Of a stretch of 64,000 nucleotides of DNA, positions 2,112-48,310 are shown in pieces; the stretch's first letter is position 1; every line of letters starts with the position of its first letter. A program made the position numbers and the translations under genes. Source of the DNA: an uncultured Erysipelotrichaceae bacterium (lineage in GTDB: Bacteria > Bacillota_I > Bacilli_A > RFN20 > CAG-826); contig CACYSA010000001.1 in NCBI GenBank assembly GCA_902777015.1, forward strand, positions 50,525-114,524, given 5' to 3'. A model generated the notes under the pieces. It was given only the letters and a program-made list of their open reading frames with translations. It ran no database searches and had not been told where the DNA came from.

Positions 2112-3366
2112 TTTTCTTTTGTTTTCTTAATACAGCGAAATATGAGGAACTACCATATTTCTTATATGGGAAATATAGCTTATCTTTCACTAAGACAAAG
2201 TTCTCATTTTCCGCGAGGAATTCATTGATGACATTGATACTTTCTTTCTTTGAAAGAGTATCAACGAAGTAGATGAGATAGCCATCTTCTTCAACTTGTT
2301 CACTTGCTTCTTTAAGGGCAAGTTTTTGATTAGCGATTAATACATCTAGCTTTGCTAAATCAAAGCGGAGGAAATAATCTGGTAATAATTGTAATAAATT
2401 AAATCTTGAACTATCTGGCATAACGATAAATGTATGCACAGGTTTAGAAATACATGTGAGGATGGAAGAAGCTTGCGCTTCATAAACACTCACATTTTTA
2501 AGACCGTATTTGTACAAATAATTCTTTGTGCTTTTAGCGGTACCGATATTAGAAGCAATATAATCGATATTGCCCATGTTTTGATTTCTTGAAACAAAAT
2601 CAAGAAGAAGATCGTTAGGATATTCAGCATAAATAGCAATACCTCTTAATGGATCAAGGTCACCTTCATCAAGCATTTCTTTGAACGCTAATGGGAGAAG
2701 TGTCGCTAAACCTTTTTCATTAACAGGATGGGCTTTGTATTTACCTTCACCTTTAAATAAGGCAGTACCAGGAATGCCTTCAATAGCATCAAAGTCATTA
2801 GCGAATTGAAGGAAGAAATCTTCATCGCTAATTTTTTTGTTATTAATTCTGACCACTACTGGAGCTGGTTTGCTATTAGCTTTTAATGTTTTATTAGCGG
2901 AGATATGACCAAATTGCTTGGCCCACATTTTAATAATGTCACTTGGAGTGTTATAGCGGAAAGATAAGAATTCAAACGAACCAACTTCAATGTTTTCAGG
3001 AACGAGCTTCTTATCATTGAGATAAGGATTAATGAAGTCTTCAACTTTCATATCCCCTTCTTTTAAATAAGAATTAGCGTCTTTATTGCATTCTTCTTGG
3101 TTGAATTTTTTAATGAACAAAGCGTTAGATAACGCAATCAAAAGTGAAATAACACCATTTTTATCTAAGTCTCCATATTGTTTATTGATGACATAAGACA
3201 TCACTAGATAGTGACGTAAGACGCATCCCACAACTGCAGAGATGTTGGCTTTCTCTTCTTTAGGCATTTCATGTTTTCTAAATGCTTGTTTTAAAGCGAG
3301 AGAAAACGGTGTGTTTTCGTTGATGATTTTGTTTAAAATGTCTTTCGCTAAAATGTGTGGAGTCAT
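2104..3366 (-). CDS. rsmB: RsmB/Sun-like protein with NusB-like N-terminus and degenerate methyltransferase motifs (probable pseudoenzyme)
   Basis: 420 aa in the conserved rsmB slot. Colinear with RsmB, but AAPGGKT is replaced by AEYPNDL, DAPCSG by VMPDSSRF, and YSTCS by FVDTLS. See the finding at 2104-3366. Confidence 0.7.
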   Translation of the reverse strand: MTPHILAKDILNKIINENTPFSLALKQAFRKHEMPKEEKANISAVVGCVLRHYLVMSYVINKQYGDLDKNGVISLLIALSNALFIKKFNQEECNKDANSYLKEGDMKVEDFINPYLNDKKLVPENIEVGSFEFLSFRYNTPSDIIKMWAKQFGHISANKTLKANSKPAPVVVRINNKKISDEDFFLQFANDFDAIEGIPGTALFKGEGKYKAHPVNEKGLATLLPLAFKEMLDEGDLDPLRGIAIYAEYPNDLLLDFVSRNQNMGNIDYIASNIGTAKSTKNYLYKYGLKNVSVYEAQASSILTCISKPVHTFIVMPDSSRFNLLQLLPDYFLRFDLAKLDVLIANQKLALKEASEQVEEDGYLIYFVDTLSKKESINVINEFLAENENFVLVKDKLYFPYKKYGSSSYFAVLRKQKKND

Positions 3367-3388
3367 AATGACTTCTCTCCTGACTTAA

Positions 3389-3841
3389 TTAGTCTTTGTT
3401 GAAACTTTGGAAGATATCGCCAGTGAAGATTTCGTCTTCGCCTTCTCCTTCTTCCATGTCCTCATAATCCTCATTAGTAACATCAACTAAATTATCCGCG
3501 GCAATAAAGCGTGGATAGGATTCATTGAATTTACTGTAGCGATCATCTTGCGAATAATAGTAAAATTCAAGAATTTTATTAATCGCGACATCGCCGATAC
3601 TTTCTAAAATTAATTTCGCTACTTGGTCTTGTAAGACAGCGACTTTCTTAGGAGCGTGAACATGGATAATAATATTCCATGATGTTTGTTCCACGCCGTT
3701 ATGGAACACCATGTTTTCTGGTGCCACAAAAAGAATATCGTCTTCACTCATTTCGTATAACTTTGCTAAATTTGGAGTCATTTCACGAGATAAGCGTCCA
3801 ACGACGAATTGATCTAAACCATAAATGGTAATCGTAATCAT
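3389..3841 (-). CDS. Small acidic-tailed hypothetical protein, possibly DUF1904/tautomerase-like
   Basis: ORF trimmed to ATG 3841 (MITITIYGLDQ...), which has GAGGT 9 nt upstream. The ORF-track start at 3883 lies inside the priA-terminus repeat. The family call rests only on remembered sequence character. Confidence 0.5.
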   Translation of the reverse strand: MITITIYGLDQFVVGRLSREMTPNLAKLYEMSEDDILFVAPENMVFHNGVEQTSWNIIIHVHAPKKVAVLQDQVAKLILESIGDVAINKILEFYYYSQDDRYSKFNESYPRFIAADNLVDVTNEDYEDMEEGEGEDEIFTGDIFQSFNKD

Positions 3842-3862
3842 AAAAAATATACCTCGGGTATA

Positions 3863-3916
3863 AGTATAATACAGGAAATACATTTTTTATACTAAAAATT
3901 GTATGGATCAATATTA
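3863..3916 (-). repeat. Direct repeat copy C of the priA 3' terminus plus downstream spacer (putative distal island boundary)
   Basis: 3878-3916 (39 nt) is identical to 10289-10327, which holds the last 8 priA codons, the stop and 14 nt of spacer. A weaker match extends to 3863. Confidence 0.85.
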
Positions 3917-3933
3917 GTTATAGTTACCGATAG

Positions 3934-4446
3934 TTATTGAGTTGCTGAAGAATAATTATCTAATCTATCTTTAGTGCTTTTATTGCGACAATAATCATGA
4001 TAAATATCCAGCAAACTAAAAGCGTAATAATTAGCTTCTCTTTCAATGCTTCTACTGGTTCGATTTTTATCATCAAAAAAATACCATTGATAATAATATG
4101 TTAATAATTTTGTTAAGTTTAATAAAATATTGTCCATGTTTTCGATCGCTGACTTAGCTGCCACAAAAATACAAGGATAAACAATTAGATTCTCAGTTTT
4201 CTGTCCATTCACAAACTTTCCATAAATTCTTTTTCCACTTTCGTTAAGGAAAAATGAACAATTACGGATATAAATCTTACACCGAATAGGGAAAAAGTAC
4301 TTTTTTCTTAAAAAAGCAATATATTTTTTAATCAAGTTTCTTTCTTCAAAAGGATATTTTTTATCAAATAGCAATCTCAAGCCATGTTTTTTTGAATCCA
4401 AATAATACTTTTTACAATCAAAATCAATCCAAGAGTTATAGCTCAT
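3934..4446 (-). CDS. Candidate immunity protein for the RHS1 C-terminal toxin
   Basis: 170-aa ORF starting MSYNSW at ATG 4446. It overlaps the RHS1 stop (4436-4438) by 11 nt, with GGAGA upstream. The position immediately downstream of a polymorphic toxin is the only functional evidence. Confidence 0.55.
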   Translation of the reverse strand: MSYNSWIDFDCKKYYLDSKKHGLRLLFDKKYPFEERNLIKKYIAFLRKKYFFPIRCKIYIRNCSFFLNESGKRIYGKFVNGQKTENLIVYPCIFVAAKSAIENMDNILLNLTKLLTYYYQWYFFDDKNRTSRSIEREANYYAFSLLDIYHDYCRNKSTKDRLDNYSSATQ

Positions 4447-7400
4447 ATTCGTCTCCATCTCCAAATAAATAATCAAATTCATTTTCTATAAGCCATCCCA
4501 GAAAAAGTATATATTTCAAGTGGTCCCGACCAGGTGTATGGTGCTTAAGGGGTTTCCTTCCTCTTCTAAATTTGCATTTTGTATCAAACCTTTGTCTCGA
4601 TTTATTTTTTAATTCTCTTCCTTGCTTTTTTTGACCTGGCCTTGCATTTGGATCTTGTGGGTTAAATTCTTCGACTGTACAACCACTGGTTAGAACAGTT
4701 ATTTTCGTAAATTTATCTGTTGATTTGATTGTATCTTCACCGCTGAAATCTATCGTGTTAAAACTATCATTGATTGCATTTCCGATTTCGCTAATTGTTG
4801 AAGAAAGAGAATCTGAAAAGCTTTTTAAAGCTGGATATGCGATATAAACCAGTAATACACAACAAAGAAAAATACCAGAACAAGCGATTATAGTGAGTTC
4901 ATGTCCAAGAGGATCAAAATAGTTCATTGGATTATTGGCGCAGTAACAATATAAATTTAGCCCAAAAGAGTCTTTGTACTCTAAATATGCCCAATCATCA
5001 GGAGATATAAATCTACCTGTTTCTGGATCATAATATCTAGAAGTAAGCCAGTATAACTTTAAATCAGTATCGTAATAATAAGAACGATATCTAATTGGAT
5101 TAATATTACCAATGAATGAAGGGTCAGTATTCTCCAAACCATTAGAATCGAAAACTTTATGATAGCCCCACGCGTCGTAAACGTATCTTGCCACTACTTG
5201 GAAGCTACTATTTCTAATAGCAATAACATCTTGTTGAATATCCTTTTCGTAATAATAAACTTGATTATTAAAAACAAAGCCAATAACACCATTATGGGAA
5301 TTTAGATATAGTAAGGTATCAACATTATTTCTTACTTCACTGATGAGTGTTCCATTTATATAGTTATACTTTGTATAGTTTGTAGGACTGATAGATTTTA
5401 ATATCCTTTGTTTAAAACCATCATATTTAAAAGAAACTGTAACACTATTACTTACTTGATAAGTTTCTAGAAGCGTTCCTCTTGTCCAAGTTAAATTGTG
5501 ATTTCTATAAACAGTAGGATTACCATAGTTATCATATCGAATTGATTGATTATTATAAGAAGTCAATCTGTTAGGATGATTTGGATCATCATATGTGTAT
5601 AAATGCCAAGCTAAAATGTTACTAGGAGTTAGAGGCGATGAATAATCATATTCTTGTTTTGAAACAATGTTACCGTTATTATCGTAAGCAATGAAGAATC
5701 TACGATCTAATTGTTTGTTCCACTCTTCTATTAAACGTGAGTATTTATCATAAATATAGTCATTTGATTCTATTATTTGTGAAGATATCGACGTGAGATT
5801 AGAAATATTGCCAAGGCTATCATAGGTATAATGATCAGTCCTATGAAGCGTAGGAACATTGTTAGTGACACTATAATAAGAAACTGTCTTTGGAAGATTA
5901 TTACTTCTATTAGCGTCTGTTGATGAATGACAATAAGTAATTGTCTTTTTAAAGCCAGAATAGTTAATAAGAAGGGATTCTTCTGTTAACCGTGAATAGA
6001 CATCAACTTCATTGTCAACTTTTATAAAACTGCCACTATAAGCGATGGTTGATTTTTTTATAGTCTTCTCTAAGCCGTTGTTTGGATAATAAACGTAAGT
6101 GACATAGTATAAAGAGGCGACTGCCATCTCAACAAGGCGACGATTTTTTTCATATTCGTATGATACTGAAAGACCATTATAATCAACCTCTGTAGATATT
6201 AATTGGTTATAATAATCAAATTCATTCGTAATGTATGGGTTTAGATTTGGATCAAGTTGTGTAATGGCATTATCATTAATCGATATAGGATTATTGAAAT
6301 CATCGTATTCAAATTCTAGATATTCATCAGTGGTAACTCTATTTCTATTGTCAAACTCAGCATAACATTCATATCCATTTGCGTATCTAGTGTAATATCG
6401 ATAATTCTTCACAATGTCTTGATGAATGTTCGGAACGTATTCAATTTCTGCAATTTGATGATTATTATATTTGACTTCGCACACTTCTCCACCTGAAGAA
6501 TTGATGGTAAAAGTATTGTTGCTAGTTGCTAAAGAATAAGAGTCTTCACTTATGTAATTGTTATACTGGTCGAAGTAATTGGTGGCTGATGCTTTAAACT
6601 GAACGCTTTTTTCTCTTTCGCTTGTTATTGAATCAAAAGAACGTGACTCTATTAGACCATTAGGATACGTGATAACGTTGTTTCTTCCGAAACCGTTATA
6701 AGCATATGTCTTTGTGGATACGTTTTCACCGATTAGTTCACCACTACTTATGAGCTTATCCTCGTTTGAATTATCATAGGAGTTTTCGCTTAAAAAATAA
6801 TCATAACTGGAAACACTGCTAATTGTTTCTTCTAATAAGTTTCCACGATTGTCATAAGTATATTCTTCTACATAACTATCACTTCTTGTTACTTTTTGAA
6901 GGATATAATTCTCATCGTAATCATTTATATATGAATAACTATTAGTGCTACTTAGATGTTTAATTACTTCTTCCTCATAAAAGAAAGAGATATTACCACT
7001 TGAGAATGACTGGTTGTTATGCGAGATTCTTGTTACTTCAACAGTTGCATCATCCTTTGCATTTATTTTGTAAAAAGAAACATCAGCGGATGTACCTGGA
7101 CCAGCATATTTGATGCTTTTTGGACTATTTGACCAATTCATATTTAAGTAGTTTCTCATGCTAATGGTCAAAGAAGTAACGTTGTCCACTAGTTTTGTAA
7201 AATTATCAAACCAAAAATGATTAGAGCCACTACTATTGGTCCAGAACAATCTCTCGTTAGCGAGATAATCATCCATGGAGCAATGGTAATACTGCATATA
7301 GACACTTCCGTTTAAAAACACACCTTTGCCATTTGATAAAAAGTAATACGGTGTATCTCCATAAAAGAATACCGGACCATCAGTTCTAACGTTTGAGCAA

Positions 7401-8794
7401 AAAGCTTCGAACTCCCCAATTAGTGGCACTAGTTTAACTTCTTCAATAAAAACTGAATTTTGAAAATTCTTTGTGATGGTTAAATAAAACTTTCTTTGGG
7501 TGGAATGTCTAACACCAACTGGTGAGGCAAGAAGAGAGGTTCCATTTTTAAAATCTAGCATCGCTAAAGAATTACCATCATAGTCTTTTAATTCAACTGT
7601 GAGCGTGTCATTGTTTGCAAATTGGCCATAAATTCTAGCGTAGAACAAATATATTTTTTCTGATTGGATATTGCTGTTTCCGTTAACAATACTCTGATGA
7701 AACCATTCATTATTTGGCATGTCGTAGGTATATGATGACTGTTGGCCACCACTATTTAATTTAAAATGTATGATTTGATTATCATCGATGTCTTTTATTA
7801 AGCAATTAGCAAATTCTGAACTAAGTGTGAAATAACTGAGATTCCCTGAGCCTTGCGACTTTTGCGAAACTAATTGTTCTTGATTAAAATCATATAAAGT
7901 ATTAATTCCATGTGCATCTTTAACAGTCACCTTATTCTCGCCATAGTGATAATCAAAAGCATATCTAACATGATTTAAAGAAGAACTGAGAACTGAGACT
8001 TTATCGCTATAGTAATTAACAGTAAATGTATCGCCATTATCTAGTTCGAGTTCATATAAAAATGGGCTGCAGGTAAAGTTTTCTTCAATGATGTTATTAT
8101 CACCGATGTTTTTGGTGACTTTTGTCAAATAATAGTCGCTATTAAAAAGAACAGTAGATACTAGATTGTTATTGAAGTAAATCTCCACATGATTATAGTA
8201 ATAGGCAAAATAGACAGTTCTACCATAGTTATCACTGATATGGTCTATTTTTAACGAACCATTAGCACCGTCAATTAAATAAGATATGGAAACTTCCGCT
8301 GATAAAGACGATGTTATGTGTTGATGGATTAAGATAAGACGACCATATATGTCAAATTGTTGATAATTGCCATAATCATCAAATACTTTATAGCCACCAC
8401 TTTGGAGAGTTTCTAGCATTAAGCCAGAACCTTTTATATCGTAATATAGTGATGAGGAATTTATAGCTTTTTCAAACACATGTAAGAACCCATCTGAATC
8501 CTCATAATTATACTTATCAATGCTGGAATCATACTCGAGAAACACATGGTAATTTGTCTTGCATCCTTTAGGAAAACCAGTTGCATAATGTAGATATCCA
8601 ATAGAAACAGTATGCGTTTCGATATACTTTAATGATAAATTTAGTGGTAAATATCTTCCTGGCAAGGAGAATAGTTTTCGAGTAAAGTAAAGTTTTCCGT
8701 GTTCTAAATCGACCTTAAAAGAATAGTCTTTATAGTCGTGTTTTAAAAACTGCTTATATTTATCAAAATAGTAGCCAGCGAAATAGAAAGACAT
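4436..8794 (-). CDS. YD-repeat / RHS-family polymorphic toxin, 1452 aa
   Basis: Many YD repeats (YTYDNRGNLLEE, YTYDSLGNISN, IAYDNNGNIVSK, RYDNYGNPTVY). RHS core end is GNINPIRYRSYYYDTDLKLYWLTSRYYDPETGRFISPD...NPMNYFDPLGH, followed by a 154-aa variable C-terminus. GAGG lies 8 nt before the ATG at 8794. Confidence 0.9.
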   Translation of the reverse strand: MSFYFAGYYFDKYKQFLKHDYKDYSFKVDLEHGKLYFTRKLFSLPGRYLPLNLSLKYIETHTVSIGYLHYATGFPKGCKTNYHVFLEYDSSIDKYNYEDSDGFLHVFEKAINSSSLYYDIKGSGLMLETLQSGGYKVFDDYGNYQQFDIYGRLILIHQHITSSLSAEVSISYLIDGANGSLKIDHISDNYGRTVYFAYYYNHVEIYFNNNLVSTVLFNSDYYLTKVTKNIGDNNIIEENFTCSPFLYELELDNGDTFTVNYYSDKVSVLSSSLNHVRYAFDYHYGENKVTVKDAHGINTLYDFNQEQLVSQKSQGSGNLSYFTLSSEFANCLIKDIDDNQIIHFKLNSGGQQSSYTYDMPNNEWFHQSIVNGNSNIQSEKIYLFYARIYGQFANNDTLTVELKDYDGNSLAMLDFKNGTSLLASPVGVRHSTQRKFYLTITKNFQNSVFIEEVKLVPLIGEFEAFCSNVRTDGPVFFYGDTPYYFLSNGKGVFLNGSVYMQYYHCSMDDYLANERLFWTNSSGSNHFWFDNFTKLVDNVTSLTISMRNYLNMNWSNSPKSIKYAGPGTSADVSFYKINAKDDATVEVTRISHNNQSFSSGNISFFYEEEVIKHLSSTNSYSYINDYDENYILQKVTRSDSYVEEYTYDNRGNLLEETISSVSSYDYFLSENSYDNSNEDKLISSGELIGENVSTKTYAYNGFGRNNVITYPNGLIESRSFDSITSEREKSVQFKASATNYFDQYNNYISEDSYSLATSNNTFTINSSGGEVCEVKYNNHQIAEIEYVPNIHQDIVKNYRYYTRYANGYECYAEFDNRNRVTTDEYLEFEYDDFNNPISINDNAITQLDPNLNPYITNEFDYYNQLISTEVDYNGLSVSYEYEKNRRLVEMAVASLYYVTYVYYPNNGLEKTIKKSTIAYSGSFIKVDNEVDVYSRLTEESLLINYSGFKKTITYCHSSTDANRSNNLPKTVSYYSVTNNVPTLHRTDHYTYDSLGNISNLTSISSQIIESNDYIYDKYSRLIEEWNKQLDRRFFIAYDNNGNIVSKQEYDYSSPLTPSNILAWHLYTYDDPNHPNRLTSYNNQSIRYDNYGNPTVYRNHNLTWTRGTLLETYQVSNSVTVSFKYDGFKQRILKSISPTNYTKYNYINGTLISEVRNNVDTLLYLNSHNGVIGFVFNNQVYYYEKDIQQDVIAIRNSSFQVVARYVYDAWGYHKVFDSNGLENTDPSFIGNINPIRYRSYYYDTDLKLYWLTSRYYDPETGRFISPDDWAYLEYKDSFGLNLYCYCANNPMNYFDPLGHELTIIACSGIFLCCVLLVYIAYPALKSFSDSLSSTISEIGNAINDSFNTIDFSGEDTIKSTDKFTKITVLTSGCTVEEFNPQDPNARPGQKKQGRELKNKSRQRFDTKCKFRRGRKPLKHHTPGRDHLKYILFLGWLIENEFDYLFGDGDEYEL

Positions 8795-8803
8795 CTAAAA
8801 AAC

Positions 8804-9295
8804 CTCATAATCATTATAATTCACGGGATACATTTTTAATATTAAAAATTGTATGGATCGATATTAATCAATAATTCGTACTGACTGTTATAGGCGAATA
8901 GCTGTTGCATCTTTTCTAATATTTGATGGGCTTTATTTGGGTCACGATATTTCACGAGAATGTTTCTTAGATGGTAACCCATATCATAAGGTACATATGG
9001 AGTGGATGGGCCTAGTATTTGTCCTTCGTCCCCAAATTCATCATTAAGGAAGTCAACAACTTGATATGTATTTTCAATTTTGTTCGAGTTGTTTAAGTGA
9101 TGGAGGTTTTAAATAGAAAGAAATGACTCTATCATCTTTAACCTTCTTTAATGCTTGTCCAGCATCGTTGATTTCGATTTCTAATAAGACGTTTTTACCT
9201 TGATTACGAAGATCTTCAACAATGCTCTTTGGTGTACCGTATATGTTACCAACGAACTCTGCCTTTTTAAGAAGTTATTGCTTTATTATTCTTTT
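8804..9295 (-). pseudogene. Chimeric relic: internal gmk fragment fused to priA 3' fragment plus priA downstream spacer
   Basis: By hand alignment, 8804-9079 matches 10265-10540 (priA end plus 38-nt spacer) with about 16 mismatches in 276 nt. 9080-9263 matches 12682-12865 (inside gmk) with about 10 mismatches, and looser similarity runs to about 9295. The junction lies at an AATT microhomology. There is no start codon. Confidence 0.85.
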
Positions 9296-10233
9296 GCTTC
9301 TTCTATGGTTATTACTGGAAAGAATTTAAAGTAATTGAAATAAACATTAGAAAACATTTGGTATCCCGTTATTTCTTGTTTTATCATACTATAACCTATT
9401 ATTAAATAATCATATTTCCAATCCGCATTTGGATTGCCACGATATACAATGTATGAGATATTATCTTCAAAAGAATAATGCCAAAACGGTTTAAAATCAT
9501 ATTCCATCATAATCGAATAAATATCTTTTTTTATTAATTCAGCATCGAATAAAGAAACATTATAAGTATTGTCACGATTACGCAGTAATACTTTTTCTTC
9601 TATAAGGCATCTTCCGTCAATTAACTTACATTTCTCCTTGTAATACAATTCATCATCGAAGATTTTAATATCTTCGCTATCGCTAGGTATTTTTTCTAAT
9701 GTGTTATCAAACAAATCAAGTTCATAAAACCCAGAATTTGTTTTGTAATACATTTTTGAATCATAACCACTATTATATGATTCTATTTCTTCATCAAAAT
9801 AAAAAACAAATTCAAAATTATCAAAATTAGTATCTGTTTTTCCAATGCAATATTCTTTTTCTTGTTTATTGAAAAGAAAATAATAATGATTTTCTAAATA
9901 TACTAAAAATTTTACTATGTCATAGTCGCTGTTTTCTATTTTTAAACGCTGTTTAAAGTCATAATAGCTAATATAGTTTTCATATGAAAAATCTATATGA
10001 TGTGCATACTCTTTATCTAAAACACAAAAATTATCTCTACACAAAGGAACTAATCTTTGTTGGATTTGATTCTTTCTTTCCTTCCAAGAAGAATTAATTA
10101 AAGAGTCAATCGCTAGGCAAATTGCAACACCGATCGCCACAAGAGTAAAAGGGTTAAAAATTATCCAAATTGTAATCCATAAAGAGCGTGTTTTTTGCCA
10201 AAAAGTTTTTTCTTTTTTTGAATCAATTGCCAT
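9286..10233 (-). CDS. Hypothetical single-pass membrane protein (cassette gene X), Tyr/Asn/Phe-rich ectodomain
   Basis: 315 aa with an N-terminal TM helix (LWITIWIIFNPFTLVAIGVAICLAI). It lies between two copies of the priA-terminus repeat. Its last codons and stop lie in gmk-derived sequence. Confidence 0.7.
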   Translation of the reverse strand: MAIDSKKEKTFWQKTRSLWITIWIIFNPFTLVAIGVAICLAIDSLINSSWKERKNQIQQRLVPLCRDNFCVLDKEYAHHIDFSYENYISYYDFKQRLKIENSDYDIVKFLVYLENHYYFLFNKQEKEYCIGKTDTNFDNFEFVFYFDEEIESYNSGYDSKMYYKTNSGFYELDLFDNTLEKIPSDSEDIKIFDDELYYKEKCKLIDGRCLIEEKVLLRNRDNTYNVSLFDAELIKKDIYSIMMEYDFKPFWHYSFEDNISYIVYRGNPNADWKYDYLIIGYSMIKQEITGYQMFSNVYFNYFKFFPVITIEEAKE

Positions 10234-10302
10234 GATTATTCTTCTCTATCAAAATGTCTAATGACTCATAATCATTATAATTCACGGGATACATTTTTTA
10301 TA

Positions 10303-12498
10303 CTAAAAATTGTATGGATCAATATTAATCAAGAGTTCGTATTGACTGTTATAGGCGAATAGCTGTTGCATTTTTTCCAATATTTGATGGGCTTTATTTG
10401 GGTCGCGATATTTAACAAGGATGTTTCTTAGATGGTAACCCATATCATAAGGAACGTATGGAGTGGATGGTCCTAGTATTTGTCCTTCATCCCCAAATTC
10501 ATCATTAAGGAAGTCAACAACTTGATATGTATTTTCAATTAGATTCTCTTCGTTTTTAGCGCGTAAAGTCACACTCGCTAAATAGGCATATGGAGGATAA
10601 AATTGTAGTTTGCGCATTTCCATCTCTTTACGATAGAAAAGTTCATAATCTTGTCTAGCTGCGAACGTAATTGCGTAATGACTTGGAAGATATGTTTGAA
10701 TAATCGCGGTACCTGGTTTATCTTTTCTTCCAGATCTTCCAATGGCTTGAGTAATTAGTTGGAACGCTCTTTCGTTACTACGATAAGATGGCATTGATAA
10801 ACCAATGTCCGCTAAAACGATACCAACTAGGGTTACATCTGGGAAATCATGGCCTTTCGCTATCATTTGTGTACCAATTAAGACATTAGCTTCTTTCTTT
10901 CTAAATGCTTCAATTGTTTCAGGTATTTTGTTTCTATTTTTAGCACTATCACTATCTAGTCTTAATGTTTTAGCGCTCGGGAAAAGACGCTTAACTTCTT
11001 CTTCTATTTTTTCTGTTCCAAAGCCTGTTTTCATGAGATAGGAAGAGCCACAATCTGGACATGTTTCTTGCATTGGTTCAACATAATCACAGTGATGGCA
11101 TTTAAGCATGTTATCTCTTTTATGGTAGGTTAGTGCTATCCCACAAGTTGGACACTTAAAAACATGACCACAGTTACGACAAGTAACATGAGTGGAAAAT
11201 CCTCTTCTATTGATTAATAAGATAGCTTGTTCTTCTCTTGCTAATGTAATGTGAAGAACATCTCTTAAAGCATGAGAAAAGATATAACTATCCCTATCAA
11301 TGTTCTTATAATCAAGCATGTTCACAATCTTAGTGGTTGGTAGCTTTTGATTATTGATACGCTTATTTAAATAAAGCATATGATAGACGCCTTTTTGTCC
11401 TCTTGCTCTACTTTCTAAAGATGGAGTAGCGCTTGCTAAAAGGACTTTGGCGTTATTATATTTAGCGCGCATTATCGCTACTTCTCTAGCGTGATAGAAT
11501 GGTAAATTATCTTGTTTATATGATTCAGTATGTTCTTCATCTAGGATGATTAAGCCAATATTTTTAAGAGGAGCGAATATCGCACTTCGTACACCCACGA
11601 CTACTTTGCAGTCCCCATGATTAATCTTACGGTATTCATCATATTTTTCCGCAGGGGTTAATTCACTATGAAGAATAGCGACGTTATTTTGGAAACGATG
11701 GAGGAAATATTCCACCATCATGGGAGTTAATGATATTTCAGGAACAAGCATTAAAACTGATTTACCTTGTTTAAGAACTTGTTCGCTTAAAGATAGATAA
11801 ACTTCTGTTTTGCCGGACCCAGTAACACCCTCTAACAAGTAGACTAAATCATTAGAATTATTGAACTCATCAATAACCTTATTTTGATCATCGCTAAGTT
11901 TAGGAGGAGCACTATATTTATAATCAGGTATCTTTAACCTGCGTTTTTCTTCTTTAACAATCTTGATTCTTTGTTTTTCTAAAAGCTTTTCAATGATACT
12001 AGGAGATTTAACATCTCTTTTTAAAATACGACCATCGTTTTTAATTAATCTTAATAATTCGATTTGTTTATTTGTTAAATCAGATTCATCATCATTAATA
12101 ACTTCTAGATATTGATCATACGCAATTTTAGGAGCTTTTAATGATGTCTTTTTTGGTGATAAAGAAGGAGGTAACATTGATTGAAGAACACTAATCTTAG
12201 GCACTAGATAATATGAAGATACTTCATCTAATAAAGATAATAATTCTTCGTTTAATAATGGTTCATCATCAATGACATCTTTTATTTCAGAAATAGAGAA
12301 ACCCTTTTCTTCTTCATATTGTTCTATTGATTTATTAGTTTCTTCTACCTTTACTACGTAACCAATAATGTCTCGATGATTAAAATCAAGTAAGACACGG
12401 ATACCTTTCTTTAGAATTTTGCCACCATTATAAAAATAAGAAAAAGGACGGTTTAATGAGCTTTTAGCATATTCAATGAGAACTTCCACTACTTGCAT
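10303..12498 (-). CDS. priA: Primosomal replication restart helicase PriA
   Basis: 731 aa with Walker A GVTGSGKTEVY, DEEH box, and the Cys-rich zinc region CRNCGHVFKCPTCG...CHHCDY...CPDCGS. Confidence 0.95.
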   Translation of the reverse strand: MQVVEVLIEYAKSSLNRPFSYFYNGGKILKKGIRVLLDFNHRDIIGYVVKVEETNKSIEQYEEEKGFSISEIKDVIDDEPLLNEELLSLLDEVSSYYLVPKISVLQSMLPPSLSPKKTSLKAPKIAYDQYLEVINDDESDLTNKQIELLRLIKNDGRILKRDVKSPSIIEKLLEKQRIKIVKEEKRRLKIPDYKYSAPPKLSDDQNKVIDEFNNSNDLVYLLEGVTGSGKTEVYLSLSEQVLKQGKSVLMLVPEISLTPMMVEYFLHRFQNNVAILHSELTPAEKYDEYRKINHGDCKVVVGVRSAIFAPLKNIGLIILDEEHTESYKQDNLPFYHAREVAIMRAKYNNAKVLLASATPSLESRARGQKGVYHMLYLNKRINNQKLPTTKIVNMLDYKNIDRDSYIFSHALRDVLHITLAREEQAILLINRRGFSTHVTCRNCGHVFKCPTCGIALTYHKRDNMLKCHHCDYVEPMQETCPDCGSSYLMKTGFGTEKIEEEVKRLFPSAKTLRLDSDSAKNRNKIPETIEAFRKKEANVLIGTQMIAKGHDFPDVTLVGIVLADIGLSMPSYRSNERAFQLITQAIGRSGRKDKPGTAIIQTYLPSHYAITFAARQDYELFYRKEMEMRKLQFYPPYAYLASVTLRAKNEENLIENTYQVVDFLNDEFGDEGQILGPSTPYVPYDMGYHLRNILVKYRDPNKAHQILEKMQQLFAYNSQYELLINIDPYNF

Positions 12499-12510: not shown

Positions 12511-13083
12511 TTAGTCTTTATCAAATTCCTTTAAGATTTTTATGATTTCTTCACCAGCGCGTTTAATACGATCGTTCATAATAACGAAATCGTAATTCTT
12601 TGCTTTTTCCATTTCAGCTTCCGCTTTAGCTAAACGCTTTTGGATGACTTCTTCAGTTTCTGATTTTCTTTTTCTAATTCTTTGTTCGAGTTGTTTGAGT
12701 GATGGCGGTTTTAAATAGAAAGAAATGACTCTATCATCTTTAACCTTCTTTAATACTTGTTCAGCACCGTTGATTTCGATTTCTAATAAGACGTTTTTGC
12801 CTTGATTACGGAGATCTTCAACAATGCTCTTTGGTGTACCATATCGGTTACCAACGAACTCTGCCCATTCTAAGAAATTATCGTTATCAATATTCTTTTG
12901 GAATTCTTCTTGAGAAACGAAGTAATATTCAACCCCATGTGTTTCTGTAGCGCGTGGCGCTCTTGTGGTCATGGAAATTGAAAAGACCATTGGGAAAGCA
13001 TCACGGTTCATAATATATTTTCTAACCGTGCCTTTACCGACACCAGATGGTCCACTAAGAATAATCAATAACCCTTTTTTCAT
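12511..13083 (-). CDS. gmk: Guanylate kinase
   Basis: 190 aa with P-loop GPSGVGKGT and YYFVS...FLEWAEFVGNRYGT. It lies 12 nt upstream of priA. Confidence 0.93.
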   Translation of the reverse strand: MKKGLLIILSGPSGVGKGTVRKYIMNRDAFPMVFSISMTTRAPRATETHGVEYYFVSQEEFQKNIDNDNFLEWAEFVGNRYGTPKSIVEDLRNQGKNVLLEIEINGAEQVLKKVKDDRVISFYLKPPSLKQLEQRIRKRKSETEEVIQKRLAKAEAEMEKAKNYDFVIMNDRIKRAGEEIIKILKEFDKD

Positions 13084-13248
13084 ATTATCAGTTATTTTAA
13101 ATGATATTTATTAATAAGGCAACATCTTCATTACCCTATTTTTACGCTACTAACGGACAATTCGTGTGTTTTGTATGCGAGTTTTATAAAGTACACTTTA
13201 TTTTCTCACATATCTTTTCAAAAGTGTTTTTGCTATCATAATAATTGT

Positions 13249-14619
13249 ATGAATTATTATTCTTATTCTGCATTTAAAGAAATTGTTAAAGAATTAAAAG
13301 AGAAGATTGTTGGCTGTCGTATTAATAACATTACGGTCATTAATTCTCATGACTTTTTATGCACCTTATCAATGATTAAAGATGAGAAGTTATTAATATC
13401 ATTAAACCATCAACATCCTTTTGTTTCTTTAATTGATGTAAAGAAAGTTGAACCAACAATTACTGGTTCGCTTAATGAAGCGCTTAGAAAGCATCTTAAA
13501 GATGCCTTTATTGTCGATATATCTCTAGATAATGATGATAGAATTGTTCATTTCATTATTCAAAAAGCTAATGATTATTATGAGAAAGTTGTTACCCATT
13601 TATATTTAGAATGCATTCCTCAAAGAGCAAACCTTATCTTTGTTAATGAAGATAATAAGATTATCCATGCTTTGCATTATTCTGGTATCACTACTTCTAG
13701 ACCAATACTTAATGATTTAAGTTATGAATATCCTAATAAGGGTGTTTTAAAAGATGAAGAAGTACCTACTTTAGAAGATATTAAGAAACAAGCAATTAAC
13801 TATTATGAAAATGCCTTATTAGTGCACAAGAAAGAAAAGTTCACACCACTTTATCGTTATATCAAATCTAGAATCAAATCATTAGAAAAGAAATCTAAAG
13901 TTTTAGCAGTAGAAATTGATGAGGCTAAAAGCCATCTTAACGATGCAGAAATTGGTAACTATTTATTAGCGTTTCAATATGATCAAAATGAACTTAATAA
14001 TTATTTAAAAGAAAACAATATATCTTTAGATAACTCTAAATCTTTAGTGGAAAATGCGAATAGTTATTTTAAGAAATATAAAAAGAGTAAAAGAACGATT
14101 GAGATGGCTAATATTGAAGTAGATAAAGCTAAAGAAGAAAGCGATTATTTAACTTATTTATTAAGTAGTTCACAGTTTATGAATGATGATGAACTCTTAG
14201 CGCTTTCTCAAGAACTACTTCCTAAGCAACACCTTAAAAAGAAACTAACTCCTATTAGATGTTCATATATCATCTATGATAACGTGAAGATTTCTTTTGG
14301 TAAGAACGCTTCAAGTAATAACGAATTAACATTTAAAATCGCTCATAAAGATGATACATATCTTCATATTAAAGATTATCATGGAGCGCATGTTATTATT
14401 CATGATTCTAATCCCTCTAATGAAGTTAAACTCGTAGCGGCGGAACTCTGCTTGATTCTTTCCAATAAATCCGCGGGTGATATCATGATTACTAACATGA
14501 AAAACGTTAAAAAAGGCCACGCTTTAGGCGAGGCTAATTTGCTTAATTATTCAATTATTACTTTAACTTCTATTAGAGAAGCCACTATATCCTTAATTAG
14601 TAATAAGAAAGATTACTAA
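13249..14619 (+). CDS. rqcH: NFACT-family protein (fibronectin-binding protein A / RqcH-like ribosome quality control factor)
   Basis: ORF trimmed to ATG 13249 (MNYYSYSAFKEIV...). It has an N-terminal NFACT-N-like region, a coiled-coil middle and a C-terminal NFACT-R/DUF814-like motif HIKDYHGAHVII. No clear SD sequence. Confidence 0.75.
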   Translation: MNYYSYSAFKEIVKELKEKIVGCRINNITVINSHDFLCTLSMIKDEKLLISLNHQHPFVSLIDVKKVEPTITGSLNEALRKHLKDAFIVDISLDNDDRIVHFIIQKANDYYEKVVTHLYLECIPQRANLIFVNEDNKIIHALHYSGITTSRPILNDLSYEYPNKGVLKDEEVPTLEDIKKQAINYYENALLVHKKEKFTPLYRYIKSRIKSLEKKSKVLAVEIDEAKSHLNDAEIGNYLLAFQYDQNELNNYLKENNISLDNSKSLVENANSYFKKYKKSKRTIEMANIEVDKAKEESDYLTYLLSSSQFMNDDELLALSQELLPKQHLKKKLTPIRCSYIIYDNVKISFGKNASSNNELTFKIAHKDDTYLHIKDYHGAHVIIHDSNPSNEVKLVAAELCLILSNKSAGDIMITNMKNVKKGHALGEANLLNYSIITLTSIREATISLISNKKDY

Positions 14620-14623
14620 GGCT

Positions 14624-14902
14624 TTAAAAATCGTTGTACAAGTATTTTATAACACCACAAATTAAAGCAATGAGATTAAAGTCATCTTCCAAACAGTTAT
14701 AATCATCACTATTAATAATATCTCTATCTATTGTACAAACGTTGCCTTTGTATACATAAAAATCCAATTGTCGATTATTTTTATCTTTTATAGTCAACGC
14801 CATGGTTGAAAGAGACTTTTTGTTGTATTGAAAATCTAAAACCGAACAACCATAAAAGTACAAAAACCATTCAATCAATTCTCTCATCTTTTTCTTTCTC
14901 AT
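14624..14902 (-). CDS. Candidate immunity protein for the RHS2 C-terminal toxin
   Basis: 92 aa from ATG 14902 (MRKKKMRELIEW...). The start overlaps the RHS2 stop as TAATG. Positional evidence only. Confidence 0.55.
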   Translation of the reverse strand: MRKKKMRELIEWFLYFYGCSVLDFQYNKKSLSTMALTIKDKNNRQLDFYVYKGNVCTIDRDIINSDDYNCLEDDFNLIALICGVIKYLYNDF

Positions 14903-17900
14903 TAAAACATTCTCCAATCTATTCCATGTTCAATCAAAAAATCAATTTCATCCCATAAAGCTGAAGTGGGCTTAGCTGCTCTTATACCAGTAACGGCAAA
15001 TTCACTTCCAAGCGTGATTGCATCGTTGAGAAAAGTCGCATTCAACTTCCATTGTTCGCACAAATCTAATGAGAAATAGACTTCTTTTGGTATGTCAAAA
15101 GCGCTCGCTCCAATATATTTTGCCACATTTAAATATGCCGGAAAGCTTCCAAGAACTGTAATCGCTTTTATAGGAAGAACATAATATTTTGTTATGGAAA
15201 AGCCAAGTATTCCGGTAATTTCGGTAATCATTGATCCAGCAACATATCCAATTATACCTCCAACAACAGCACCGCCAAGCGCTCCTAGTGCGGTTAGACC
15301 GAATAATTCCCAGCCTTCTTTCCCTTCGTTTTTCATTTTATTGTAAGTAATTACCCCGCCAATGGTGGCACCAATTAGCGCACCAGCGATTAAACCAAGC
15401 ATAGCAAGAGATATTGCCAAATGCCCATCTTCATCCATCAACATCACCGGATTATTATTACAATAAGCATATAGATGGAAACCTGAGATATTGTCTTGAT
15501 TTAAATATTGGAATTCATCTGGAGAAATGAACTGCATGATAGATGGATCATAATATCTGGCTAATAGATAATATAGGCCTGTTTCAACGTCATAATAATA
15601 GCCTTTATATCTAATCGGATTGATATTACCAACTGATGACATATTAGTGTCTTCATCACCTGTAGCAGTTAAAACTTTGTGATTACCCCAAGCGTCATAA
15701 ATATACCTAGTAACAAAGCTTCCCATTTTGTCAACGATACCAATTATTTGATTAAATGGATTTTTAACATAACGATAAGAAGTGCTAGATGAACCATTAT
15801 AGTAATTAAAGCCCACTATGCCGGTTTCATCATAGAAATACCTGATTTCTTTATTATCACTTCTCTTTTCGCCAATTAGTCTATTGTCATGATAATAGTA
15901 AGTAATCGTTAAGGAGTTATTGATCTTCTTTTGATATCTTCTATTTTGATAATCATAAGTAAACTGCACTGTTTGGTTTCCTTTAACGAACTGACTTAAT
16001 AATGTACCCCTAGTCCATTGATAAGTTTCATTTCCTTTTGTCAAACGATTACCGTATGCATCATATGTAAAAGTGATGTTACCAAAAGAAATCAATCTAC
16101 CCTTGATATCATAAGTTAACGAATTATTGCCAACTGTTGATAATCTTCCATATGTATCATAAGTATACGAACGATTATATTCAGAAAAAGAAACATTGTA
16201 TTCTTGTGTTATACGATTAAATCCATCGTAACTATACGCAAAGCGAGGGAATGATTCTCCATTAGTGTAAATACTAGAAAGATTGCCAAAAATATCATAG
16301 CTATAGGATTCTAAATAAACAGGATAAATTATCGTATTATTCGTTTCGTCTTCATTAATACCAAATGTAAAATTATATGGCAAAGAAGAACCATTAATAT
16401 ATGTTATGTCACTAATAAGACAGTTGGTGTTAACAGCAGCAAATACACTATAATGCTTTTTGACTCTACCGAAGTTATCTTTTTGAATATTGAACGTGTG
16501 AATAGTTACATTATGAAAATTATGATTCTCTAGCCTTATTTCAGTTTCATCAACACTGCGTATAAAAGACATATCATATAAGCCGAAATCATATATTGTT
16601 CCGTTAATGTAATAGCCTTCATCAATGATAAATTCATCGTTATTAAAATTAGTTGTAATCAAAGAATTATCGATTTGATCATAAGTGAACGATGTCACCA
16701 AACCACTAGCATCATTATGTTTATCAGTTATAGAAGTTAGATTTGAAGCAAAATAAGATTCACCACTATTTGTATATGAATAATCAACCTTGGTTTCACT
16801 ATTAAGACGAATATGGGTTAACTTTTTATAGTTGTTCCGTTGATAGACAAGCTGCAGGGAAGAAGGATAGTTGATAATAGTACTATTGCCGTTTTCCAAG
16901 ATAGAATACAAAGAAGAATAAGTATCATCACTTTCTAAAACTTTGTAAGTGATACCTTTTTCCATAGTGCTTTGAACAGCTTGATAATTTGTTGCACCAT
17001 TAGAAAAACTCTGAGTATTGTTAACATAGTTAATTCTATTAGTGTTTGTGCATTCAATATTATCATTTAAGCAAAAATTGATCTTAACTGGACCATCACC
17101 ATTAATGGTATATATGTATTTTTTTGAATAATAACTGTTTAAAATAGTTGATCCGCTAACAGTGTTTCTAACGATTGATGACGGACCGTATCTACCATAA
17201 GTTATATCAACACTATTTTTATCACTTGTTTTTCTAGAGATAAAACCTTTGTTGTTTTCGCTCGCCTCATAAAGAACGATAGTCTCTATTCCATCAGTGG
17301 ATATAACTTTCTTAAGTTCTCCATTAGTGAAGTATTCATATGTAGTTGTATTTGTGGACACAACATGAGCCACTAAAGGATTGCCACTCCATTTATATTC
17401 AGTGCTTGTCTTTTCAATTAGTTTTTCATAGTAATCGTAGGTTTTTATTTCTTCACTTATCTTACGAAATACACCATCAACGTATGTGCCATATCTAGTT
17501 GTTATTACTAGAGTATCATCGATAAAAGAATAATAAACTCTAGATGCAGTATCGTTCTCGGAAGATAATATTGTTCTATCTGGAGAAACGGTTTCAAAAT
17601 ACCAAACAAAGTCTTGTTCAGAATCAATATCGAAATTAGAGCAATTAAAAGAATTAAAAATAATATCGTTACCGTTAAATAGACAGAAGCGGAAATTATA
17701 AGAGTCCACTACTCGACCATCGTTAAAATATAACGGGTGAGCGTGAGGGGAATAGTTTCCATATAGTAAATCAAAACAATTATGTTGGTGTGAAATTGTA
17801 TTAAGAAGATCGTTTGGTGACATTCTTATTTCACCAGTAACATCAATAATCCTACTTGGTGTTTGATCGTAATAAGAAGGATAAAGACCAACAGAAGTCA

Positions 17901-19407
17901 CTTCATCAAATGAGTGAGTTCCATTAGCGTCTTTAAAAAATAAAGTTGTTTTTGCTTTTTTATCAAAATAGATGTCACCAATATCAACACTGACACTGTT
18001 GCAGTTTTCATTAATAAATGACAAATAAATTGTTAAAGAGGAGATATTATTAATATTTCTAGTTATTGGGACTTCCACTAACTGATATTTATCGAATTGA
18101 AGAACATTAATATCGACCGGCGAAGAAGATATGGTGTTTGATCCAGCAATGACTGCTCTTACTCTTTTAGATGTGTAGTCGTTTAATCTTAAATAAAACC
18201 TTAATACAAAATATCTATAATTGTTTAATAAAGAAATGGCATTATAAGAAAAATACAAAGAAATTGGTGAAGTTGCTCTAATAAATCTATGGTTGTTAAC
18301 ATAGATATGTTGGGTATTGCCTGTAATAGGAATATAAACACCAGTTTCTTTATATAATGTTGTAAAATCATCGGAAGATAAACCATTAAAAACCGCGGTG
18401 ATCTGAGCATTTTTATCCATTGAATAGGAATAAAATACACCGTTTTTAATGACACTCACCTCATTAGTGGTCACCCAATCATCCGTTCTTAAGCTATAAC
18501 CGATGCGCTGAATTGTTTCTATAGCGGTAAAAAGACCGTCACTTGGATGATAATATCCTTTAGATAGAGCTGTCACCAAAAAGTCATTGTATAAGTTTAT
18601 ATAATCGTAATGGATTTCATAAACATCATGAGTTTGATGATTGTCTAAATAGTCAATCCTGTCGAAAGATGAATCTGGTATTGAAAGATCGCTGTTATAA
18701 TGAAACGAATATAATTCTCTTTCATCACTAATACCAGCATCTATAGACATGCTTGTTAAAAAGTTAGATGTGTATTCCAAATGAAGCCTATTTGCAATAG
18801 CAATATTGTGATATAAGGTGATATATGAAAGTTTTGAATCGGTATAAGCAAAATTGATATGCGTATGAGTATCTCTTTCATCACAAACTCTTGTTAAAAA
18901 GCCGTTTGCATCATATACGATTGTTTTGATGTTAGTGTCGTCAAAGCCGTTAACAATTTGAACAAGTCGTCCATAATCGTCAAAATACAGCTTATCGTTT
19001 TTAGAATTAACGATTTCCGCCATAAAAGAGCTATCTTCATCAAAATATAAGTAGAGATTGCTTTCATTACAAAAATACAAGGAAGTTTTTACATAATAAA
19101 ATGTGTGTATATAACCAAAATCATCAATGTATTTATAAATTGGATGTTCGTTATCATCCTCACCATCTTCTATTAAGAATTGATGATAATTTGTTTTAAA
19201 TCTATCCGGAAGTCCTAAACAACGATTCGATATGCTTTGAGGCATTCTTGAATGATATACAAGATTAAAACTTAATTCATATGAGTCCCTACTAACAGAA
19301 ATGGCATCACTAATAAATCTCATTGATTGGTCAAACAAATTAAAGAAAGGATTGTCACCAATCTCTGTACTTGAAATATTCTGTCTAGGGAGAAGTTCAG
19401 TGGGCAT
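14902..19407 (-). CDS. YD-repeat / RHS-family polymorphic toxin, 1501 aa (paralogue of 4436-8794)
   Basis: YD repeats ([34 protein letters not shown]). RHS core end is [38 protein letters not shown]...[12 protein letters not shown], followed by a 172-aa variable C-terminus. Confidence 0.9.
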   Translation of the reverse strand: [1501 protein letters not shown]

Positions 19408-19483: not shown

Positions 19484-19996
19484 TTAATCTTTGAATAAGA
19501 AATCTGGCCCCTTAATTGCTTCTTCAGTAGCGAGATTAGGGAACTTTTGTTGTCTAAGAACTTCATAGGCCACTAAAGCGACACAGTTAGATAAGTTTAA
19601 ACTTCTTGCTTCAGGGACCATTGGTATTCTCATTAATCTATCTTCATGACTTTTTAGGATGTCATGAGGAATACCAGTTGATTCTCTACCAAACATTAAA
19701 TAGATATCTTTAAGTGGATTTGATAAATCATAACTGGAATAGACCGTTTTAGCGTATCTAGTTACATAGAAAATATCGGCGAGAGGATTCTCTTTTACAA
19801 ACGCTTCATAGTCAGGATAAAACTTCATCTTTAAATCGTCGATATAGTCCATACCCACTCTTTTGAGGTCTTTATTATCCACAGAAAAAGTAATTGGTCC
19901 AATGATGTGAAGCGTCGCATGGATAGCGACACATGTTCTCATAATGTTACCAGTATTTTGTGGTTTTTCTGGACGATATAAGACGATATGAAGCAT
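19484..19996 (-). CDS. trmL: tRNA (cytidine/uridine-34 2'-O)-methyltransferase, SpoU/TrmL type
   Basis: 170 aa with PQNTGNIMRTC and the C-terminal knot motif LNLSNCVALVAYE. TAATG overlap with ppa. Confidence 0.8.
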   Translation of the reverse strand: MLHIVLYRPEKPQNTGNIMRTCVAIHATLHIIGPITFSVDNKDLKRVGMDYIDDLKMKFYPDYEAFVKENPLADIFYVTRYAKTVYSSYDLSNPLKDIYLMFGRESTGIPHDILKSHEDRLMRIPMVPEARSLNLSNCVALVAYEVLRQQKFPNLATEEAIKGPDFLFKD

Positions 19997-47402: not shown

Positions 47403-48310
47403 CTAACAATTACGAGTTATCGTTCTATTGCCTTCCTTTTGAACTACCGAGGATTCCTCGGTAACTGAATTATCTAATTCACCATCTTTCAAGATGTTCC
47501 TAATGTGGAGCCCAATATTGTCACTGTCAACATTAAATAGCAAAGACATCTCTCTTTGTGTTAACACTTTTGGATATCAATAGTTTTACCAAGTGCCTCT
47601 AGTCGCTTTTCGTTAGCTGCATAGCCTTTGATTAAGTAGTCTTTAAGAACACTGTTGACCCATCTTCTGAAAGTTATGCCTCGTTTCGATCTGACCGATA
47701 ACCAACAGAAACAATTATGTCGAGACTATATAGGCGAATTGTTCTTGTAACTCTTCTAGTACCTTCAAGTTGAACTTGTGCGCTTTCCGCACATGTTGAT
47801 TCTTTTTCTAACTCTTGATCATCATAAATATCATTTATGTGTCTTAAAATTCTTGTTCTGTCAACATCAAATAGCAAAGCCATCTCTCTTTGTGTTAACC
47901 ACTTTTGGATATCAATAGTTTTACCAAGCGCTTCAAGATGCTTTTGATCAATAGCGCAGCCCTTAATTAAATAATCTTTTAAAATCTCGTTAGCCCATCT
48001 TCTAAAAGCAATACCTCTTTGTGATTTTATTCTATATCCCACTGCAAGAATGACATCCAAATTATAAAATTTGGAAGGCCTGTAATTCACCCTTTCGTCG
48101 AATTTTTCGACGGAAGTGTTTTTATCTAGTTCCTCGCTAGAAAAAATGTTATTAATGTGGTAGGTTACAGTACTTCTTGCAGCGCCAAACAGTCTAGCAA
48201 TTTCCTCTTGCGTTAACCACACCGTGTCATGCTGTAAATCCGCTCGAACATCGAGCTCAAAACCATTATCAGTAAAAGTAACGGTTTTGTCTTTATTTAT
48301 TTTTCCTCAT
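47403..48310 (-). pseudogene. RhuM-family (virulence protein-like) gene: three tandem partial copies of the N-terminal module with frameshifts
   Basis: The WLTQxEMAxLF...VGYR...FRRWAN..LKDYLIKG...LEALGKTIDIQK unit occurs three times (about 48222-47905, 47904-47590, 47589-47403). I see frame breaks near 48295, 47680 and 47565. The DNA repeat 47500-47670 versus 47840-48010 is visible by eye. Confidence 0.7.

Follow-up and report, generated by a model that had tools for sequence, protein, structure and literature searches.

A probable recombination-built Rhs toxin island at the 3' end of priA in an uncultured rumen bacterium

The sequence considered here (the window) is a stretch of 64,000 nucleotides (nt) from an uncultured Erysipelotrichaceae bacterium (assembly GCA_902777015.1, contig CACYSA010000001.1, positions 50,525 to 114,524). 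In it, an Rhs toxin gene (RHS1), its candidate immunity gene (imm1) and a further gene, X, lie between priA and a small gene, among three direct copies of the priA terminus. We conclude that the priA-small intergenic region of this one rumen Bacilli species probably holds a decaying island of Rhs polymorphic toxins built by recombination, and that the additional priA termini are scars of duplicative recombination rather than attachment (att) sites. The features of the locus are, in descending order of position:

12511-13083, minus strand: gmk (guanylate kinase), intact (Pfam Guanylate_kin, E 5e-49), the source of the fragment at 9079-9304.
10303-12498, minus strand: priA, intact, 731 amino acids, with all PriA Pfam domains and 50-99% amino acid identity to priA of 80 genome loci.
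10265-10555, minus strand: copy A, the live priA 3' end (last ~80 codons) with the derived spacer sp* (10265-10288); it includes the 39-nt block O(A) at 10289-10327.
10223-10264, minus strand: probable 3'-end remnant of a deleted Rhs toxin gene, suggested by its likeness to toxin C-termini.
9286-10233, minus strand: gene X, by homology to immunity-position proteins an orphan Rhs immunity gene, 315 amino acids, with an N-terminal membrane segment.
9079-9304, minus strand: gmk fragment, codons ~58-134, of which 9079-9263 aligns to 12681-12865.
9079-9094, minus strand: gmk/priA deletion junction with the microhomology AATT(-)GAAAA.
8795-9094, minus strand: copy B, a displaced priA 3' end (78 codons) with O(B) at 8828-8866, sp* at 8804-8827 and a leader up to the RHS1 ATG.
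4436-8794, minus strand: RHS1, an intact Rhs-repeat toxin gene, 1452 amino acids (Pfam RHS_repeat).
3934-4482, minus strand: imm1, candidate RHS1 immunity gene by position, its true start perhaps at ~4446.
3842-3916, minus strand: copy C, comprising O(C) at 3878-3916, identical to O(A), and the ancestral spacer spC with the ribosome-binding site of the small gene.
3389-3841, minus strand: the small DUF1904-like gene, first of the downstream rsmB-rlmN-prpC operon.

An earlier reading made without database searches (the sequence-only reading) had described three direct copies of the priA terminus, and a repeat finder run on the window confirmed them. Copies A and B form a direct repeat of 291 nt with 92% identity (8804-9094 and 10265-10555), with exactly 16 mismatches across 276 nt (8804-9079 versus 10265-10540). 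O(C) matches 10289-10327 at 39 of 39 positions; it contains the final 8 priA codons, the stop codon and 12 nt past the stop. A 57-nt repeat family (3860-3916, 8810-8866 and 10271-10327; 84-89% identity) unites the three copies, which all lie on the minus strand as collinear direct repeats. Two occurrences of the 38-nt spacer were found in the window (0 and 1 mismatch), against 0 expected from 100 shuffles. Our gene calls for priA, gene X, RHS1, the immunity candidate and the small gene agree with the earlier ones. The G+C content of the island is slightly lower (27-34% versus 32-38%), which is not diagnostic.

Loci for comparison, numbered with the prefix L, were gathered in two ways. A priA scan using one genome per species gave 80 loci from metagenome-assembled genomes of rumen or gut 'Bacilli' or Erysipelotrichaceae, and a metagenome scan with the small gene gave 53 further loci; an exact-protein look-up of priA returned no match. 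In essentially all of the scanned loci (about 125 related loci) the small gene lies within ~50 nt after priA. The same is true of at least 9 contigs of the window's own species, which was defined by an identical small protein and 97-100% identical DNA. Copy C and its spacer are thus the ancestral priA-to-small junction, as had been supposed from the sequence. The spacer spC is 83-87% identical to the priA-small junction of other species, and position 3916 is exactly where the similarity of the empty-site contig L081 to the window switches.

The priA terminus and the spacer behind it form a block conserved across the clade, ..GAYCCNTACAATTTTTAG TATAAAAAATGTAT..TGTATTATA..GAGG..ATG, which presumably contains the promoter and ribosome-binding site of the downstream operon. 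A scan for consensus promoters and terminators was uninformative (51 matches versus 53 expected, the spacers not being flagged), so it is conservation in the clade that argues for the promoter role. The sequence-only reading had noted the same spacer before each cassette. Its two occurrences stand, but the spacer is a duplicate of this clade-wide, promoter-like priA-small spacer and not a cassette-specific element. A copy of it stands ahead of each module and may drive that module's expression.

Had the supposed insertion been an old fixed rearrangement, neither polymorphism nor an empty site would be expected. Both were found, in the form of four structural alleles within the one species. The empty allele (E) is present in L081, L141-L146, L162 and L163. 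Allele X1 (L001) has the order priA-O-sp*-X'-O-spC-small. Allele X2 (L137 and L138) reads priA-O-sp*-X-gmk'-priA'-O-spC-small, copy B being continuous with the ancestral junction and RHS1 absent. The window form, allele W, consists of X2 plus sp*-RHS1-imm1-O. Recombination between direct repeats accounts for this series: exchange between O(B) and O(C) would convert W to X2, and exchange between copies A and B or A and C would yield simpler or empty alleles. The layout of the window recurs in at least 7 independent contigs from other samples: L147, L158 and L159 cover all three copies with the same junctions; L148, L149, L160 and L161 carry part of it, and L139 and L140 the imm1/copy C/small junction. 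Window-type contigs are 99.3-100% identical to the window, while L134, L137 and L138 are ~4% divergent and carry the same X/gmk and gmk/priA junctions.

The nature of copy B is indicated by a feature that the sequence-only reading had overlooked. Positions 9079-9263 are a 95% ungapped copy of an internal part of gmk (12681-12865), and the similarity extends with indels to ~9304, giving a fragment of 185-226 nt of which 9264-9304 is indel-degraded; gene X takes its last 5 codons from gmk. The gmk piece and copy B follow each other in the native gmk-to-priA order, fused across the microhomology AATT(-)GAAAA. The same gmk/priA junction was read in the sequence of L134 and is supported by collinear BLAST alignment in L137, L138 and L147. 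Because of this fusion, copy B is evidently the leftover of a second gmk-priA segment after an internal deletion of ~2.1 kb, and not an att site. Of the three junctions gmk/priA, X/gmk and imm1/O, gmk/priA is the one whose parental sequences could be compared, and microhomology was seen there. In the window the gmk fragment carries 4 amino acid changes at clade-invariant positions, all absent from the L134 fragment, as well as indels, and so bears the marks of decay.

In the coding part of copy B (78 codons) all 15 differences from copy A are synonymous and the two proteins are identical, which rules out an old duplicate decaying in place and indicates that copy B once belonged to a functional allele of another strain. 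When copies A and B of several strains are compared along with the alleles of empty sites, they fall into a star-like set whose members are separated by 10-17 differences. This set is largely built from shared synonymous polymorphisms, and variants of copy B occur also in the live alleles of other strains. It appears from these comparisons that copy B came from a working priA of another lineage or was converted from one. Among window-type contigs copy B is nearly clonal.

A related observation concerns the last 240 nt of priA (window 10303-10555 versus L147, L158, L137, L081 and L001). At least 6 alleles are present, 10-23 synonymous differences apart. All encode the same protein, and the variants are distributed as a mosaic. 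The population of this species appears to recombine heavily.

Exchange at the locus itself can be followed through the divergence between strains. L147 differs from the window at 3 positions in the 6.5 kb from spacer A to the small gene, versus 29 in the adjoining 545 nt of priA. L158 and L159 show 2 differences in the 5.4 kb of RHS1-imm1-O-small; their divergence is ~1% in X, gmk' and copy B and reaches 2% from rsmB onwards. RHS1-imm1 is ~0.04% divergent between strains whose flanks are 1-6% different, and the drop falls exactly at the repeat borders. Since a near-clonal RHS1-imm1 sits in backgrounds of different ancestry, the pair has evidently been transferred recently between strains by homologous recombination through the repeats. 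Copy B with its spacer would serve as one homology arm and the small gene, at the opposite end, as the second. A homology-driven spread of cassettes had been suggested before, and the sharp breakpoints at the repeats bear it out. Two marks of homology-anchored displacement, a displaced anchor copy derived from a different allele and later homologous exchange in the flanks, are present.

The cargo belongs to the Rhs family. RHS1 matches Pfam RHS_repeat (E 5e-8) and has 43 full-length homologues, most of them annotated PF05593. Its shell reaches to ~amino acid 1296 (..NYFDPLGH) and is followed by a variable C-terminus, the predicted toxin. Paralogues elsewhere are 50-83% identical over the shell and differ in their C-termini; the protein P0004 is 83% identical to RHS1 over 89% of the length. 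The Rhs proteins of L006 and L012 are 92% identical up to amino acid 1312, after which both the C-terminus and the downstream gene differ. RHS1 has two features of an Rhs/YD-repeat module, an RHS/YD-repeat shell and a core ending in a DPxG(L/H)-type motif with a varying C-terminus behind it. The 182-amino acid open reading frame (ORF) of imm1 overlaps the 3' end of RHS1, a position that fits a cognate immunity gene and makes imm1 a candidate for that role; it has no Pfam match and is unrelated to the X family.

Members of the RHS1 family are found at several other places. In L006 and L012 an Rhs gene with the same N-terminus and 50% shell identity lies directly upstream of gmk, between rqcH and gmk, and Rhs remnants lie upstream of gmk in L063 and L091. 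Paralogues accompanied by an X-family immunity gene occur in L012 (3951-9222, between rqcH and gmk, the immunity gene following the Rhs gene), L151 (10001-15347, after PFOR) and L154 (245-5567, before glgB); a paralogue before glgB is present throughout L154-L156. L151 (JAGBLL010000041) is from the same metagenome-assembled genome as L001. In each case similarity between the RHS1 paralogues begins at the ATG, and L151 matches RHS1 perfectly over the first 30 coding nt but has unrelated DNA ahead of them. The spacer sp* resembles the region upstream of the L151 paralogue, and it was considered as the Rhs cassette's own leader; this idea was dropped since the resemblance is inseparable from the general likeness of AT-rich upstream DNA. 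No flanking repeats were found at the PFOR, glgB and rqcH-gmk loci. The sequence-only reading had proposed looking for the 39-nt core beside other Rhs genes, and no O-like site with up to 9 mismatches was found near the paralogues in L151-L157, L135, L012 and L006. Its view of the locus as a cassette hotspot for polymorphic toxins holds in a narrow sense only: the site is variable, but the cargo is all of the Rhs family and from one species.

Gene X, which has no Pfam match, shares 48% identity with P0002, the product of a gene 25 nt downstream of an Rhs toxin C-terminus in L135, and 21-27% identity with membrane-anchored proteins of 300-323 amino acids in the immunity position of L012, L151 and L154. 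X-family proteins hold this position behind Rhs toxins at four other loci, whereas in the window gene X follows priA and the spacer, and the only toxin-like sequence ahead of it is a remnant of 13 codons. On the strength of this homology gene X is to be regarded as an Rhs immunity gene lacking its toxin, an orphan left by toxin deletion, rather than the independent cassette for which it had been taken. The remnant (10223-10264 plus the last 6 spacer nt, 10265-10270) reads YESLDILIEKNNHGN followed by a stop codon and has an 11-nt overlap with the start of X. Toxins encoded ahead of X-family immunity genes have similar C-termini, for example the toxin of L135, which ends in FDHIIEEYQHEKE and a stop codon, and the same remnant/X junction is present in L001, L134 and L137. 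This is suggestive, though not proof, of a deletion that took out the toxin and spared the immunity gene. In L001 the corresponding gene, X' (3117-4050), has a frameshift near 3785 and a last third with ~30-36% protein identity to X, in register. It looks like a chimera of two tandem X-family genes; no homologue of its second parent (the C-terminal third) was found in databases.

The following history is proposed. An Rhs-immunity cassette, of the family found just upstream of gmk-priA in relatives, would have landed behind priA by one duplicative event. The source order would have been that of L012 and L006, in which rqcH, transcribed in the opposite direction, is followed by RHS-imm (imm being of the X family in L012) and by gmk-priA-O-spacer-small, and the product would have been priA-O-sp* joined to RHS-imm-gmk'-priA'-O-spC-small. 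The event may have been an unequal sister-chromosome exchange duplicating RHS-imm-gmk-priA-spacer. Alternatively, a foreign fragment may have paired homologously on the right and joined illegitimately on the left, at the ribosome-binding site and ATG of the small gene (homology-facilitated illegitimate recombination). The allelic evidence is more consistent with the second form. Such an event would yield the native order of X, gmk' and priA', two priA ends of different alleles, and an Rhs start codon in the place of the small-gene start.

With the priA end and spacer duplicated, priA would keep its 3' end and the downstream operon would keep its promoter, if the spacer is one. Because the priA end overlaps the conserved, presumably promoter-bearing spacer of the next operon, only insertions that duplicate this block would be viable, and selection alone could produce the att-like appearance. 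Later deletions would have trimmed the redundant DNA, leaving gmk'-priA' (copy B) in one unit and 39 nt (copy C) in another. One Rhs toxin would have been deleted, its immunity gene X staying behind as an orphan.

Several points weigh against this history. Its founding event is reconstructed and not observed, and all comparison sequences are metagenome assemblies, which may blur strains. The simple intermediate, a full priA-sp*-Rhs-imm-O-small, was in no contig recovered by exact look-ups of the small gene, RHS1 and gmk. The spacer sp* differs from the ancestral spacer at ~8 of 26 positions, directly beside 39 identical nt. Copy C has its left edge at exactly the same nucleotide in the window, where it adjoins imm1, and in L001, where it adjoins a different gene end, an agreement not expected from random trimming. 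Tests for a degraded priA remnant immediately to the left of copy C, and for sequence common to the window and L001 there, were not significant (shuffle p 0.8-0.97).

A second site of the same geometry lies 5 kb from the priA/small site. At 14624-19407 the window contains RHS2 (1501 amino acids) and orf97 between the convergent genes spoU (19484-19996) and rqcH (13171-14619); in close relatives the stop codons of spoU and rqcH overlap and there is no insert. L137 (3775-4170) has only a distant, 96-amino acid homologue of orf97 (26% identity), with the spoU terminus present on its flanks as a perfect 20-nt repeat. In L165 (789-2248) there are three small ORFs, and behind them the spoU 3' end is duplicated over 84 nt. 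Identity of this duplicate is 86% to its partner, from which it differs mostly at synonymous sites as read by eye, much as copy B does from copy A, and 94% to the window allele. The length of the right-hand duplicate of the spoU terminus thus varies (L165, 84 nt; L137, 20 nt; the window, ~12 nt), and these differing lengths point to trimmed duplicates rather than a fixed recombination core.

Of the other explanations, the one that fares best, though we consider it improbable, is that the structure arose within one genome. An L012-like RHS-imm-gmk-priA ancestor would have undergone two or three tandem duplications, and reductive deletions would then have left one working copy of each gene. The remnants stand in the order this predicts (X, gmk', priA', spacer), L012 does carry RHS and an X-like immunity gene ahead of gmk-priA-small, and the Rhs remnants of L063 and L091 lie in the appropriate place upstream of gmk. 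At least 5 separate deletions are needed, however, several of them precise. Copy B, set against copy A, is undecayed (none of the 15 differences is non-synonymous) and carries polymorphisms of other strains, the divergence is mosaic, with modules of different histories adjoining each other, and the chimeric X' of L001 is not derivable from the content of the window.

It is also rather unlikely that the cassettes are remnants of integrative elements, inserted at the priA 3' end by a site-specific recombinase and accreted in tandem, with the 39-nt block as att core and the recombinase lost or acting in trans, in the manner of cis-mobilisable elements (CIME-like). The identity of the block in copies A and C of the window would fit such elements, as would the same sp* boundary after copies A and B, the shared left edge of copy C beside two different cargoes (window and L001), and the second nearby site with its gene-terminus duplication around an Rhs-linked cassette. 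What is missing is a recombinase within the 64 kb, a constant core and the same site with related cargo elsewhere. In agreement with the sequence-only reading, a Pfam scan of the ORFs of at least 120 amino acids in the 64 kb detected no integrase, transposase or relaxase. That reading's likening of the repeats to an att duplication did not hold up, since copy B is a gmk-priA remnant, the core varies between strains and paralogous Rhs loci have no such site. The repeats are of unequal length (291 nt plus the gmk fragment, 57 nt and 39 nt). Copy B reaches 252 nt further into priA and joins gmk, an outcome that integration does not yield. O(B) has 3 mismatches, and in L137 O(A) and O(C) differ at 3 positions. 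The Rhs paralogues at PFOR, glgB and rqcH-gmk stand without an O-like site or flanking repeats, the length of the spoU-site duplicate varies between strains, and the priA and spoU sites have no recognisable sequence in common.

We give only a slim chance to a trans-acting mechanism of a new kind, one that would set Rhs toxin/immunity cassettes right behind the stop codons of housekeeping genes while duplicating 20-90 nt of the terminus, the block at priA including the promoter-like spacer; priA/small and spoU/rqcH would be two such sites. Such a site-directed mechanism is retained because the edge of copy C, the divergence of sp*, the missing one-cassette allele and the last third of X' in L001 are otherwise unexplained. 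An integron-type array was considered and rejected: there is no integrase, the repeat consists of host coding sequence plus spacer, and no attC-like site is among the inverted repeats listed. Finally, although the source is uncultured, repeats of 291 nt can mislead short-read assemblers and some contigs break inside copy B (L134), an assembly artefact made by chimeric joining of strain variants is hardly credible and is effectively refuted, since the three contigs that cross all three copies with the same junctions come from different samples and assemblers, and each junction is separately covered by several further contigs.

Three other features of the window may be recorded. A 2099-amino acid ORF with a hydrophobic N-terminus (38163-44462, minus strand) has no Pfam match at E 1e-5 and is not detectably Rhs. 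Five tandem 48-nt units, 61-73% identical, lie at 58963-59210 between a xanthine/uracil permease gene and a GGDEF-EAL gene, and could represent either a small repeat protein or a degenerate array of repeats. A truncated RhuM-family ORF next to a helix-turn-helix regulator has, within and beside it (47524-48222), an internal duplication of ~335 nt (42 nt at 95% plus 126 nt at 75%), which may be a decayed remnant of a mobile element or defence system.

If the recombination-built island is accepted, the locus offers a well-resolved natural case of a toxin-immunity island built and traded without a mobility gene in an uncultured rumen bacterium, with four alleles available in public metagenomes. 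It would illustrate that direct repeats of a gene's 3' end around a cargo need not be att sites and can be displaced allelic copies of the terminus of an essential gene, kept because that terminus overlaps the conserved promoter-like spacer before the next operon. It would likewise illustrate that an orphan immunity gene can outlive the loss of its toxin. For annotation purposes, the gmk and priA scraps and the toxin-end remnant should be entered as pseudogene fragments and gene X as a member of an Rhs immunity family.

In Streptococcus thermophilus, integrative and cis-mobilisable elements of the ICESt1/ICESt3 family accrete in tandem at gene 3' ends, in this case at fda. The resemblance to the present locus lies in cargo situated behind a conserved gene 3' end, in direct repeats that bound and subdivide it, and in inner units that have no integrase. 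Here, by contrast, there is neither an integrase nor a constant core, the repeats are very unequal, and one of them is joined to the next gene upstream.

A closer parallel is found among the type VI effector-immunity modules of Vibrio cholerae, which are sequentially displaced by homology-facilitated illegitimate recombination (Kirchberger et al. 2017, PMC5361080). Common to both systems would be a conserved upstream homologous anchor, an illegitimate other end and an orphaned ancestral immunity gene, after which ordinary homologous recombination swaps whole modules between strains. The anchor of the present locus differs in that it is not a secretion-system cluster; parts of two essential genes and a conserved spacer are duplicated, and the host is an uncultured rumen bacterium of the Gram-positive type.

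In Enterobacteriaceae (Jackson et al. 2009, PMC2935791; Koskiniemi et al. 2014, PMC3967940), Rhs C-termini are displaced and orphan toxin/immunity modules arise. Those systems likewise have a conserved shell, a variable C-terminus and an immunity gene; displaced older modules persist as orphans headed by a fragment of conserved upstream sequence, and direct repeats mediate homologous gain and loss. By contrast, the repeated anchor at our locus is the priA 3' end (with the gmk piece) and spacer and not the rhs core. Whole Rhs genes appear to have been stacked and deleted rather than C-terminal tips only, and the orphan immunity gene lies upstream of the intact pair. In Firmicutes, the tandem paralogous immunity genes of type VII secretion toxins recombine homologously with one another (Garrett et al. 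2022, PMC9484751), a process with which the in-register chimera X' of L001 may be compared; unlike the arrays described there, our locus has a single orphan and no long array, and the second parent of the chimera was not found. Taken together, these comparisons suggest that the locus is best read as a variant of known Rhs and type VI effector displacement in which the end of a housekeeping gene acts as the conserved anchor.

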